A DNA stretch of 64,000 nucleotides from an uncultured Nitrospiraceae bacterium (lineage in GTDB: Bacteria; Nitrospirota; Thermodesulfovibrionia; Thermodesulfovibrionales; Dissulfurispiraceae). Below, one piece after another: positions 1-3,439 of the stretch. The stretch's first letter is position 1. Each line of letters opens with the position of its first letter. Location of the stretch: the NCBI GenBank assembly GCA_963727805.1, contig CAVSHF010000005.1, forward strand, positions 608,001 to 672,000, given 5' to 3'. The position numbers were made by a program, and so were the translations under genes. Under the pieces are notes generated by a model that did no database searches, was not told the DNA's origin, and saw only the letters and a list, made by a program, of their open reading frames with translations.

Positions 1-112
1 TGCCTTCAGTGACAATAGTCTTCGTCTCCTCATTCTTCTGTGCGGCAAACGAGATAACGACGCATGTCGCTACTGCTAACAGAGTTACCAGGAACGTTAA
101 TTTAAGCTTCAT
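1..112 (-). CDS. Exported protein, N-terminal fragment (runs off the window)
   Basis: Manual translation MKLKLTFLVTLLAVATCVVISFAAQKNEETKTIVTEG...; signal-peptide-like N-terminus; GGGGTG upstream of the ATG. Confidence 0.6.
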   Translation of the reverse strand, partial: MKLKLTFLVTLLAVATCVVISFAAQKNEETKTIVTEG

Positions 113-381
113 AAAACACCCCCATGCACAAATTTATTTAGACCGATTGTTTGAAGTCTAATATATATGCCCGACCGTATCAAGCGATAACCGAACAACA
201 TCTTTCTGGTCCTTTTTCTTACTTTTTTTAGACACGAATATGGTCTTTGATGAGCCGGATTTGTAAGCCTCCCTTAAGTGTGATTCAAGAGATTCTTTCT
301 TTTTTAGCTATATTCCATCGAAAATGCAAAGTAATCGTCTTCGTAGCTCGGTAAGTTAATGAAAGTAGTGACAGCTGCAGA

Positions 382-1428
382 TCAGTTTTCTATGAAACAT
401 TGCGGATCGTCAGCGAGGTAATTTTCTTGTCCTTTTGCCTTTGAATATGCGTACGCGATTGCCCTGCAGCCGCGGCAATTAGCCCATCTTTTACACGCTC
501 CGCATTTGCCTTGATACTTGTTTCTGTCTCTTAAGTGCTCCAAGACAGGTGAGGTCGCCCAAACTTCGCGCAAGGAATCAGTTTTGACGTTGCCTATAGG
601 TACGTTAAGCCGTCTGCACGGAGTAATCGTCCCATCCGACAGAATGGTTAGTCCAGAGACGCCCGCTGCGCAGCCTCCTGCGGCTACATTGCCCATGTCT
701 TCATCGTTTTCAAGTGACGTTAATTGAGATGCGACAGGATCACCGGTTATGATCTTGAGAGGCGCTGCATCGAGAGCGAATATTTTCCCGTACAGGTTTT
801 TGATCGCTTCCATTTCGATCATTTTATCGAGCATCGCCTCCCCCCTCCCATACGGGACAAGCCTCGAAAACCCAAGCCTCTGGACGCCGAGTGATTTGGA
901 CAGGCCTATCATCTCCATAAAATGTCCGGCGTTCAACGACGAAAGTGTAGCGTTCAATGTAACCGGGACACCGGCATCGACGAGATTTTTCACCCCCCCG
1001 ACGGCCGCCAAGAAGCTGCCTTCGCCCCTGATTTCTTCATGTATCGCCTCAGGCCCTTCCACACTAACCTGCACTCCTTTGATCCCTATCCCGGCGAGTC
1101 TTTGCGCCAAATCTTTATCTATAACTGTCCCGTTGGAAAGTATATATATATCGGCCCCTTTCCACGCAATTTCTTCGAGTATCTCAAAAATGTCCCGACG
1201 AAGAAAAGGTTCGCCTCCAGATATGTTATAGCTCATAGACAGTTTAATACCGTAGGCATCTTCCCAATCCCATATCATCCCGGAGGCTTCTTCGATAATG
1301 TCCATAATAGAATCTAGCGGCAATTCGGCAGGCTTTCTTTCCTGCTGATAGCAGTGGCGGCAACGGAGATTGCACCGCTCGGTAATATGCCATTGAATAA
1401 AAAAATCGTGTGTGTCGTTGACTGACAT
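382..1428 (-). CDS. Radical SAM/SPASM-domain protein, putative peptide maturase
   Basis: FFIQWHITERCNLRCRHC (CxxxCxxC), SGGEP, C-terminal SPASM Cys pattern CAAG...PCRR...CGACKRWANCRGC...DPQC; ATG at 1428 with AGAGGA RBS. Confidence 0.93.
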   Translation of the reverse strand: MSVNDTHDFFIQWHITERCNLRCRHCYQQERKPAELPLDSIMDIIEEASGMIWDWEDAYGIKLSMSYNISGGEPFLRRDIFEILEEIAWKGADIYILSNGTVIDKDLAQRLAGIGIKGVQVSVEGPEAIHEEIRGEGSFLAAVGGVKNLVDAGVPVTLNATLSSLNAGHFMEMIGLSKSLGVQRLGFSRLVPYGRGEAMLDKMIEMEAIKNLYGKIFALDAAPLKIITGDPVASQLTSLENDEDMGNVAAGGCAAGVSGLTILSDGTITPCRRLNVPIGNVKTDSLREVWATSPVLEHLRDRNKYQGKCGACKRWANCRGCRAIAYAYSKAKGQENYLADDPQCFIEN

Positions 1429-1469
1429 AAGCAATCCTCTTATAAGGATACAATTAAAAGCATTCGGTT

Positions 1470-1517
1470 AAAAAAGTAAAGCAGATACGCATCGTCCCTA
1501 TTTTGCGTATCTGCTTT
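1470..1517 (-). terminator. Intrinsic terminator/stabilising hairpin between the peptide gene and the rSAM gene
   Basis: 14-bp perfect inverted repeat AAAGCAGATACGCA (1478-1491)/TGCGTATCTGCTTT (1504-1517), followed on the minus strand by ACTTTTTT. Confidence 0.8.
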
Positions 1518-1526
1518 CATGATGTG

Positions 1527-1543
1527 GCTGCCGACCTGGCAGC
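1527..1543 (-). promoter_or_regulatory. Bacterial SECIS-like hairpin
   Basis: Minus-strand GCUGCC-AGGUC-GGCAGC, starting 11 nt after the in-frame UGA at 1555-1557. Confidence 0.75.
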
Positions 1544-1545
1544 GT

Positions 1546-1659
1546 TTAACTCTTTCAACTGCTTCACTTGCGGCATGCCTTGCCAGGAGAGGTTTTCTTG
1601 AGTCTGTCCCAGAGGACCGCCTCTTTCGCTAGTGCTGCCTTGCTTAGCTCTTTCTTCAT
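1546..1659 (-). CDS. Putative selenocysteine-containing RiPP precursor peptide, 37 aa (CxxUxxU)
   Basis: AAGGAGGTGA RBS; ATG at 1659; MKKELSKAALAKEAVLWDRLKKTSPGKACRK-U-SS-U-KS-TAA with in-frame TGA at 1564-1566 and 1555-1557; SECIS-like hairpin and rSAM/SPASM gene directly downstream. Confidence 0.8.
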
Positions 1660-1684
1660 CCTGTTGTCACCTCCTTTCGTGTTA

Positions 1685-1730
1685 ATAGTTATAAGCTATG
1701 CATGACATTAAATAGATAGCTTATAACTAT
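1685..1730. promoter_or_regulatory. 15-bp perfect inverted repeat (candidate operator) over the peptide gene transcription start
   Basis: ATAGTTATAAGCTAT (1685-1699) / ATAGCTTATAACTAT (1716-1730), 16-nt spacer. Confidence 0.55.
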
Positions 1731-1758
1731 AGTTTATCACTTCTGTAAAAATAGTCAA
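1731..1758 (-). promoter_or_regulatory. Sigma70-type promoter for the peptide/rSAM operon
   Basis: TTGACT-16 nt-TAAACT with an extended -10 TGn. Confidence 0.55.
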
Positions 1759-1770
1759 TTCCCAAAAAAT

Positions 1771-3215
1771 CTGGAGTTTCCTGAGTTTTTATCCGAACTC
1801 GAAGAGGAGTTGGAAGTCATCGCTACCGGCGGCTGATAATCCCCGTAGTGCCGTTTTGTCTGGGAACAGTAGATTGTAGATTCCATCAGCTATAGCGTAA
1901 TTGAAAAAACTCGGCACTCCAAAGAATCGTTTGGACACCAGAAAGACTCGTTCCACCAGCAATCGCAGCTTTATGTTCTGCCCAAGATACACCGCTGCAA
2001 AGTAAGAAACCGCAAGGACCAGTACGACGATATTTCGTATGCTGATATAGCTTCTCACCCGTATATCCTCAAGGTTATAGCACTGTTTGATGTACCGGTA
2101 CGACTCATCGCATTTCCACCGAGTCAGATAGTATTCAACAATCTTCCAGATGCTTTGCTTCTTGCGCATATTGACCGCACAGTTTGTTAACAGCATCATT
2201 GGCTTCATCCCGAATCCTTTTACCACAACCATGTGGAGGGGACGGTCATAGCCTGGAAGTTTAACCGCCACAGCATTGTACTGAACGGCCCGCCGCTTTT
2301 CCCTGCCGTCATCATAGACTATCAGAATACTTTCATGAGGCGTCGGCATCGTCATCGCCATATCAACACAGTGTTTGCGCTTTCCCCTATGCATCAAGTC
2401 CCGCTCCTTCAGCCGAATTACAAATCGTTGAGGCTTATCTCTTGTGAAGTAGTACTTATAGACGACCCCTCGGTCGCCACCGCGATCTATCGCATGGATT
2501 CCCTTATCTCCTATATGGCCGCGTACTGTTTCTATAGACTTCAACAGCTCAGAGTTCTCGCTTTTGACGTCCGCAGCCTCATAGGAATAGGCTTTGCAAT
2601 AAAGAGGTATTACCCGTGTGGTCTCCATATCCGCTGCCACTATTTTGCACAGATGATAGCCGTCACCTATTTCATGTTCACTGCCATCGTATATCTTGCT
2701 TAGCAGTTCCATCTTCTTGGCATATTTCTTCCGTATGTCGCCGGGATCGATCGCAATAACCATATCGTCACTAACCTTTGATGCTCCAAGCCGACAGATC
2801 TCTTCATTAATTGCAGTGGTAAAATCTTCATCGTCAAGGTTGCGAGACAGGCGGTCTTCGGTTTTTATCAATGCCTGCTCCTCTTTCAGTGTTCGAGCAA
2901 TGTTGCTTAGCTTTACGTCTTTAGCTGCCTGGATCCCATATAGCATTTCCTTGATGAGTTTCTGCTTTGGCTTCTTGCAGTTCTTTGAGATGATTCCTGA
3001 GAATTTCGAGAGTTGTCCCTTTAGATTGGCTACTGTCTTAGAGTTCTCGCTCATGGCACCTCCATCTTAGCCACAGATAAGGCTTTCACTATAATAGAGC
3101 ATTCGAAACTCAGGAATCTCCCTCAAAAACAGTCCCCGCCAGATGTTTATCATCAGATACCTTGCTACTTCAATAGGTTAGCTTATTTCTGACCGAAAAA
3201 CTCAGGAAACTCCAG
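1771..3215 (-). mobile_element. IS4-superfamily insertion sequence, 1445 bp
   Basis: 20-bp perfect terminal IRs CTGGAGTTTCCTGAGTTTTT (1771-1790 / 3196-3215); 9-bp target duplication CCAAAAAAT (1762-1770, 3216-3224). Confidence 0.92.
1789..3054 (-). CDS. DDE transposase (IS4-like)
   Basis: AIDPGD, AIDRGGD and YLTRWKCDESYRYIK (YREK-like) motifs; lies between the IRs. Confidence 0.9.
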   Translation of the reverse strand: MSENSKTVANLKGQLSKFSGIISKNCKKPKQKLIKEMLYGIQAAKDVKLSNIARTLKEEQALIKTEDRLSRNLDDEDFTTAINEEICRLGASKVSDDMVIAIDPGDIRKKYAKKMELLSKIYDGSEHEIGDGYHLCKIVAADMETTRVIPLYCKAYSYEAADVKSENSELLKSIETVRGHIGDKGIHAIDRGGDRGVVYKYYFTRDKPQRFVIRLKERDLMHRGKRKHCVDMAMTMPTPHESILIVYDDGREKRRAVQYNAVAVKLPGYDRPLHMVVVKGFGMKPMMLLTNCAVNMRKKQSIWKIVEYYLTRWKCDESYRYIKQCYNLEDIRVRSYISIRNIVVLVLAVSYFAAVYLGQNIKLRLLVERVFLVSKRFFGVPSFFNYAIADGIYNLLFPDKTALRGLSAAGSDDFQLLFEFG

Positions 3216-3439
3216 CCAAAAAATACATTGTCAAAAAATACATTCCCGAAAATACCCAAAAAATAGCCTATGGCCGACCACAATGGAAGGGAGGAATGAT
3301 TAATCGCTGACTAGAATACGGTACATTCCCCGTCCTCGTCAACGCTCTTTGAGGGGCGCTTTGGTGAAACGCACAGCCCGCAGGATCAGCCTATTTCCCA
3401 ATGTCACCTGGTGAAGGCTTCCATATCGGGCATGCGAAT

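Follow-up and report, generated by a model that had tools for sequence, protein, structure and literature searches.

Can one hairpin, lying wholly beyond the stop codon of a bacterial gene, serve two UGA codons inside that gene, and what might the resulting peptide be? The question is raised by a small gene in the window, i.e., the whole stretch of 64,000 nucleotides analyzed here. The initial annotation had described the hairpin next to two in-frame UGAs and proposed that this single element directs double selenocysteine (Sec) insertion, an arrangement that it considered unusual for bacteria.

The hairpin and the reading frame before it

The feature is on the minus strand. The gene (1546..1659) runs through 37 codons from the ATG at 1659 to the TAA at 1546, its true stop being located at 1546..1548. 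A Shine-Dalgarno-like site (AAGGAGGTGA, 1667..1676, minus strand) is found 7 nt 5' of the ATG, and a similar site precedes the homologues. The encoded peptide, MKKELSKAALAKEAVLWDRLKKTSPGKACRK-U-SS-U-KS-stop, ends with C-R-K-UGA-S-S-UGA-K-S-UAA, the two in-frame TGAs being codon 32 (1564..1566) and codon 35 (1555..1557). We predict a leader, in which K12 and E13 are invariant and W17 nearly so, and a core formed by the C-terminal C-x-x-U-x-x-U-K-S. The gene has been overlooked by gene callers, the database calls ending at the first TGA. Upstream of it there is an AT-rich palindrome, TTATAAGCTAT...ATAGCTTATAA (1690-1735), a possible regulator site with similar versions at three other loci (L008, L010, and L027), and directly 5' of the promoter region of the peptide lies an IS4/IS701-like transposase (1789-3054, minus strand) that scores under all family cut-offs.

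The SECIS-type hairpin (1527..1543, minus strand), GCUGCC-AGGUC-GGCAGC, has a 6-bp stem and a 5-nt AGGUC loop and is located entirely 3' of the stop codon. It starts 11 nt past the second TGA, 20 nt past the first and 2 nt past the TAA, exactly where the initial annotation had placed it, with the loop at 17 and 26 nt from the second and first TGA, respectively. The proposed fold also held: the 17 nt give −10.1 kcal/mol (z −3.34, with 1 of 200 shuffles equally good) and, inside the surrounding 300 nt, pair with probabilities of 0.99–1.0 and no competing fold. Folding of wider contexts was without significance (z −1.85 for 42 nt and −0.32 for 66 nt). The likeness to the minimal SECIS of Escherichia coli fdhF, which is also 17 nt long and placed 11 nt after its UGA, had been drawn from a manual alignment and was confirmed against the E. 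coli fdhF gene sequence, 12 of the 17 positions being identical without gaps, including CAGGUC and the swap of a G-C to a C-G pair. However, the hairpin found here has no bulged U, is non-coding and would serve two UGAs, and in half of the family the stop is a third in-frame UGA that is still closer to it.

The bacterial SECIS consensus sets limits of 3–9 nt for the loop, 4–16 bp for the stem, an MFE <= −7.5 and 16–37 nt from UGA to loop, together with a G at loop position 1 or 2 (PMC13188914, in its available portions). Our hairpin lies within all four limits for both UGAs. An Rfam search of window positions 1-3400 gave no match. Comparable hairpins at 15–19 nt follow 163 of the 150,004 TGA triplets of the genome (0.11%), a frequency equal to that found for TAA, TAG, or TGC; given this background, chance is ruled out mainly by conservation. 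The same build of hairpin was found after the UGAs of other frames of this genome, which, from their motifs, we take to be two fdhA-like, msrA-like and DsbA-like.

Conservation of the codons and of the hairpin

A profile built from 15 peptides was searched in 401 genomes of the phylum and matched in 74 of them, one match being spurious (leaving 73/401). From relatives of the enzyme we obtained 24 loci, of which 23 carry labels of Nitrospirota groups and one just the label "bacterium." Two TGAs were present in 75 of the 77 peptide matches in the 401 genomes. For the finer comparison we used 67 distinct loci, leaving out a spurious match (G028/L064), a decayed copy (L063) and a duplicate (L045), as well as four loci removed by a ribosome-site filter (L042, L054, L076, and L087). 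The script behind this set demanded a TGA at the first site, so that its presence in 67/67 loci is by construction and the unconstrained count is that of the 77 matches. The second site is TGA in 66 of the 67 loci and TAA in the remaining one (L007, with an intact hairpin), followed by K in 66/67 (or R) and then by S (64 loci), T or A. As stop codon we found TGA in 34 loci, TAA in 26 and TAG in five, while two have a sense codon and then TAG.

The codons after both UGAs vary like those of a protein-coding sequence. Over the four codons that follow the first TGA the entropy was 0.90 at third positions vs. 0.32 (58 haplotypes), i.e., there is ca. threefold more variation than at first or second positions. 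Ser is encoded by both AGY and TCN, and K/R and S/T/A swaps occur after the second TGA. This pattern across loci indicates that both TGAs act as sense codons, the third one acting as a stop. Plain Cys codons at these sites were found in none of the 77 genome matches and in two metagenome loci, recovered with a looser pattern (a stricter one, all-Cys plus loop, gave none). One of them (L094) reads CxxCxxC, with TGT aligned to both TGAs, and has TGA as stop, a CGUC loop and no enzyme downstream. The other (L093) reads CxxUxxC, with TGT aligned to the second TGA only; its hairpin is intact, with the loop 27 nt from its only UGA, and the enzyme is found downstream. Of all natural variants, it hints most clearly at the far UGA being served by the hairpin, although it is a single locus at which the hairpin may simply not have decayed. 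The features from which a selenoprotein family can be predicted were all found (numerous members, a TGA at the position in question, conservation beyond it, homologues with Cys and the Sec machinery), the exceptions being L007 with its TAA and six genomes without a selA match.

The initial annotation had made the case depend on whether homologues that keep the TGAs also keep the hairpin, and on covariation in its stem. The hairpin is indeed kept: the loop has a G as its first or second nucleotide in 66/67 distinct loci and lies 15–19 nt after the second TGA in 65/67, with the spacer varying by single bases. All published consensus limits are respected for both UGAs in 47/67, the misses being mostly due to the energy limit or to a 15-nt spacing. 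Among 17 distinct sequences 99% of 102 cells are paired, 15 of them with a change on both sides. Compensatory change affects three of the six pairs, a result that none of 500 shuffles equaled and that no slid control came near, in a test that did not control for relatedness. There is no second hairpin between the two UGAs, which are 6 nt apart. At one locus (L020) both TGAs are kept and the hairpin is broken (−0.6 kcal/mol). Another (L067, in G118) has two hairpins after the second TGA, one with an AGUU loop at the usual place and one with the family-typical GGUC inside the start of the enzyme gene. From these comparisons we conclude that the hairpin is real, that it has been conserved and that it very likely has a function.

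The peptide gene is present in two further copies in this genome, one intact and one decayed. The first (C3:991293-991409, minus strand) has its SECIS and is followed only by an 18-codon remnant of the enzyme; the other (C3:1337109-1337189, plus strand) is the decayed one. The peptide corresponds to no family of NCBIfam (release 20) or Pfam, and the 15 peptide members gave just two weak, unrelated matches in NCBIfam at E up to 10. The ESM Atlas, queried with the all-Cys homologue, gave no usable match and none of 36 candidates from viral contigs was confirmed. When 1.84 billion representatives were searched with an HMM, 106 matches were obtained, in which the family members stop at the first TGA. 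One of these (P0006), with W at both sites, was taken as a miscall of TGA as Trp, and several long repeat proteins were discarded as spurious. Of nine RNA runs listed, four were compared, all with contigs of relatives (shares 0.08–0.11). Some of them cover the peptide and continue to where the enzyme begins, without a listed difference at either TGA or in the stem of the hairpin; we have not counted them as evidence of expression.

The probable radical SAM/SPASM partner

Downstream of the hairpin the minus strand encodes a radical SAM/SPASM protein of 348 aa (382..1428), with matches to PF04055 (75.6 bits) and PF13186 (41.2 bits). The three cysteines of its CX3CX2C motif and seven SPASM cysteines are invariant in 63 enzyme sequences. 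It scores under the cut-off of each of the best 25 NCBIfam families listed. The highest scores (165–176 bits vs. a cut-off of 500) are for heme-pathway families, such as NirJ2 (176) and AhbD (168); an AhbD/NirJ identity was rejected on these grounds, another gene of the genome, which scores 435, being the better AhbD match. The nearest solved relatives, the RiPP maturases SkfB, SuiB, and PqqE together with anSME, share 17–20% identity, SkfB being the top match in both sequence and fold. The structure model (pLDDT 90.7) starts with a barrel strand at residue 7 and has no N-terminal RRE, and a search of this genome with PF05402 (PqqD family) gave no match. As for the marks of a RiPP maturase, we therefore found CX3CX2C with SPASM and a co-inherited short precursor with leader and core, and neither an RRE nor a PqqD-like partner. 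One or the other occurs in about half of the RiPP classes (PMC11002830, available portions).

Orthologues of the enzyme (E < 1e-90) were found in 74 of the 401 phylum genomes. Peptide and enzyme occur together in 72 genomes, the peptide alone in one, whose locus (L099) ends at a contig end, and the enzyme alone in two (G024 and G406), where it is intact and no peptide was matched. These genomes are kin, so that the counts overstate the independence of the co-occurrences. The two genes are linked in 65 of the 72 (one across an assembly break and one with a 1.4-kb gap) and on other contigs in seven. In five further genomes, which may overlap with the 401, the enzyme has another gene upstream and all five keep a two-TGA peptide elsewhere. 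The flanks, most of them judged by eye, vary and show no constant transporter or protease.

Between peptide and enzyme there is a second hairpin (1470..1517, minus strand) of 14 bp with a U-rich tail. A stem of at least 7 bp with a U tail was found in 41/67 loci, and the stem often starts with GGCAG, as does the 3' arm of the SECIS. A simple terminator scan did not call it, and we consider it likely to be a leaky terminator or a 3' stabilizer of the peptide mRNA.

Two other genes recur in the surroundings of the family. At loci that the Sec peptide has left, another small ORF, basic and with four Cys (C-x-N-x-x-C...C-x-x-F-x-G-C-P-G-F), is found divergently upstream of the enzyme (L012:1546-1755, L017:2756-2935, L018:2520-2648, L026:2666-2842, and L028:2822-3001, all on the minus strand); it has no Pfam match and is absent from this genome. 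In addition, a YceI-family gene often follows the unlinked peptide or the enzyme (L083:1818-2348, confirmed by Pfam, and, by eye, similar genes in L085-L087, L065, L073, L074, and L078), either a possible third component or old synteny.

Proposed decoding and modification, and the place of the family

This genome encodes selB, selA, tRNA-Sec and two selD over cut-off, the latter (G000 C3:482960-483883 and C5:157506-158420) with one in-frame TGA each. A selA match is found in 67/73 peptide genomes vs. 192/401 overall. The six without it are 63–96% complete and belong to a family that has selA in 54/64 genomes; of five that were rechecked, three have tRNA-Sec and one a selB over cut-off. Two further tRNA genes (G000 C3:994192-994317 and C3:960046-960162, minus strand, loci L032 and L031), missed by ARAGORN, have a GCA anticodon, U73, an 8-bp acceptor and a long variable arm, and fit the selC* type of tRNA-Cys, which is described with a GCA or UCA anticodon and the same three features (PMC5389517; PMC7609411, both in part). 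The available text of these sources also describes an 8/4 branch with an A51a bulge, and adjacent selB*/cysS* in some deltaproteobacteria only, the arrangement differing by phylum. In our tRNAs the T stem was read as 5 bp; there is one selB over cut-off, and the flanking ORFs were identified only in part. One of the tRNAs precedes a YeeE/YedE sulfur transporter gene and the other has a [NiFe] hydrogenase operon and two rhodanese genes in its vicinity. Their presence means that UGA might sometimes be read as Cys in this organism. By BLAST, such tRNAs were detected in 11 of 151 genomes and in just two of the 19 genomes in this sample that have the peptide (distant forms may have been missed), which makes Sec the likelier residue and Cys a possible fallback.

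The reading that we favor, on balance and from comparative sequence data, is a di-selenocysteine precursor peptide decoded through a post-stop SECIS and matured by the radical SAM enzyme through selenium- or sulfur-to-carbon crosslinks. Its parts deserve different degrees of trust: we are highly confident that both UGAs are recoded through the hairpin, consider it likely that the residue is mainly Sec rather than Cys and somewhat less so, though still probable, that the enzyme acts on the peptide, while the crosslink chemistry is plausible, falling a little short of probable. SelB with Sec-tRNA would dock on the hairpin with the ribosome at the first UGA and again at the second, so that Sec would be inserted first 26 nt and then 17 nt from the loop. 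Release factors would then act at the stop codon, itself a UGA in 34/67 loci, because at ca. 7–9 nt from the loop the hairpin would be too close. The U-tailed second hairpin likely keeps the peptide mRNA in excess over that of the enzyme, which would grip the basic N-terminal leader without an RRE and modify the core, joining selenium or sulfur to carbons of neighboring residues (selenoether or thioether). With synthetic Sec peptides as substrates, PapB and Tte1186 form selenoethers, and an open auxiliary iron has been proposed for them (PMC10177961, available portions). By analogy with these enzymes, the chemistry may take place at an auxiliary cluster coordinated by three Cys, the seven SPASM cysteines leaving one iron open. 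As no transporter or protease accompanies the pair, the product is likely retained in the cell, with a metal-binding or redox role.

The same decoding and the same partner could also serve another chemistry: formation of seleno- or thio-oxazoles (as SbtM), stripping of selenium, or loading or repair of a metal or Fe-S(e) centre on C-x-x-U-x-x-U. The spacing C-x-x-C-x-x-C is a common cluster- or metal-binding motif, and no export or protease gene is co-conserved. SbtM, the one known radical SAM enzyme of Sec peptides, removes four hydrogens to give a thiooxazole (PMC11002830, in part). However, our enzyme reaches 134 of the 350 bits of the SbtM model (516 vs. 348 aa), the SGUG motif of SbtA is absent, and the seven SPASM cysteines would fit, by analogy, the open-site pattern of thioether enzymes (PMC10177961, in part), so that we regard these chemistries as rather unlikely. 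Doubt at the level of the residue is smaller still. The hairpin and SelB could be used to insert mostly Cys from the selC* (tRNA-ReC) tRNA, yielding an ordinary Cys peptide; such tRNAs are reported in Nitrospirae (PMC5389517, in part) and described as enriched in genomes with UxxU hydrogenases and as recoding UGA with a SECIS (PMC13582414, in part), and one of the two found here lies 2.8 kb from a further copy of the peptide gene. Their rarity among peptide genomes, the presence of selA in nearly all of these and the almost complete avoidance of plain Cys codons make this improbable.

A short ORF in which two codons can be recoded, with the enzyme gene immediately preceded by a terminator-like hairpin, the stem of which often begins like the SECIS 3' arm, might also be a selenium-sensing leader peptide, in which stalling at UGA controls read-through into the radical SAM gene. 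Nevertheless, the peptide, both TGAs and the SECIS are kept at nine loci in which the gene that follows is convergent or unrelated (L049, L054, L057, L071, and L083-L087), and such retention in trans argues against an attenuator. The SECIS pairing without a competing fold and the conserved K12, E13, and W17 point the same way, and we give this explanation very little weight. Least of all do we believe that the first TGA is a true stop followed by conserved RNA, or that another frame is the real gene. It is true that the database calls end there, that one locus has TAA at the second site and that a 40-codon ORF exists at 1576-1454. However, the codon-position pattern, the Cys homologues and the single-base variation of the spacer speak against a true stop, and changes in the other frames are mostly non-synonymous (14/17 and 10/12 vs. 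9/15).

Returning to the di-selenocysteine precursor, one of its closest counterparts is SbtA/SbtM (TIGR04081/TIGR04082), also a short Sec peptide with a SECIS beside a radical SAM/SPASM gene (PMC11002830, in part); the selenobacteriocin is listed with two Sec (PMC13188914, Table 1). However, our peptide ends in CxxUxxU-KS instead of SGUG and the enzyme obtains 133.8 of 350 bits for TIGR04082, over 348 vs. 516 positions. TIGR04081, assumed to be present in NCBIfam as TIGR04082 is, did not match any of the 15 peptide members at E up to 10. As for two Sec three residues apart, bacterial SelL reportedly has one SECIS for both, which is said to lie within the coding sequence. The same spacing is described for Group 4 [NiFeSe] hydrogenases, Prx-like/SelL, NF041115 and FmdB-like proteins (PMC13188914, in part), and a single downstream SECIS has been proposed for the UxxU hydrogenases, which are folded enzymes or domains with the SECIS inside the coding sequence (PMC13582414, in part). 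In contrast, the members of the family described here are peptides of 37–40 aa that have a third Cys and an enzyme dedicated to them. For a SECIS located past the stop there are precedents in SaoC, in which it follows from a Sec near the C-terminus (bioRxiv 10.1101/2022.07.06.499078, in part), and in engineered TXNRD expression (PMC11431864, in part); SaoC has one Sec only and its Sec form is a minority (3/52), whereas here it is nearly universal. Since both spacings lie within the 16–37 nt consensus, and UxxU families, a proposed single SECIS for UxxU and a post-stop SECIS have all been published, the proposal of one post-stop element for two UGAs is supported by conservation, while the opinion that it is unusual for bacteria was overstated. 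The sacti- and ranthipeptide maturases (SkfB, CteB, PapB, and Tte1186) likewise combine radical SAM and SPASM domains with a Cys-rich precursor. Our enzyme differs in its 17–20% identity to them, the lack of an RRE and scores under all family cut-offs. PapB and Tte1186 accept Sec (PMC10177961, in part), in peptides into which it had been introduced as a synthetic substitution.

The portions available of a 2026 inventory of 119 selenoprotein families (PMC13188914) have no entry with this motif; several are UxxU families and the one radical SAM target is the selenobacteriocin. We found no account of a C-x-x-U-x-x-U peptide family in the literature, although subscription papers and supplements could contain one, and the available parts of PMC3531188 and PMC2398784 have nothing specific on it. 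The peptide-enzyme pair thus appears, from its sequences, to be new, and the SECIS geometry a new combination of known features. Tentatively, and with more doubt than belief, we suggest that it represents a second class of selenium RiPPs, unrelated to the first, and would include the first selenoether-crosslinked peptide of natural origin, made by an RRE-less enzyme and widespread in Sec-using Nitrospirota. The mRNA would act as a ruler, three in-frame UGAs 9 nt apart being read as Sec, Sec and stop by their distance from one hairpin, and the selC* tRNA would provide a Cys version when selenium is short.

Gene callers miss the family, cutting it at the first TGA. In the 119-family inventory it would be only the second Sec-containing peptide family targeted by a radical SAM enzyme, and possibly the natural counterpart of a chemistry known so far from synthetic substrates. 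Its 37-codon gene offers a compact test of whether one bacterial SECIS serves two UGAs and of how distance decides between Sec and stop, with natural variants (UxxU, UxxC, and CxxC, with UGA or UAA as stop) already available.
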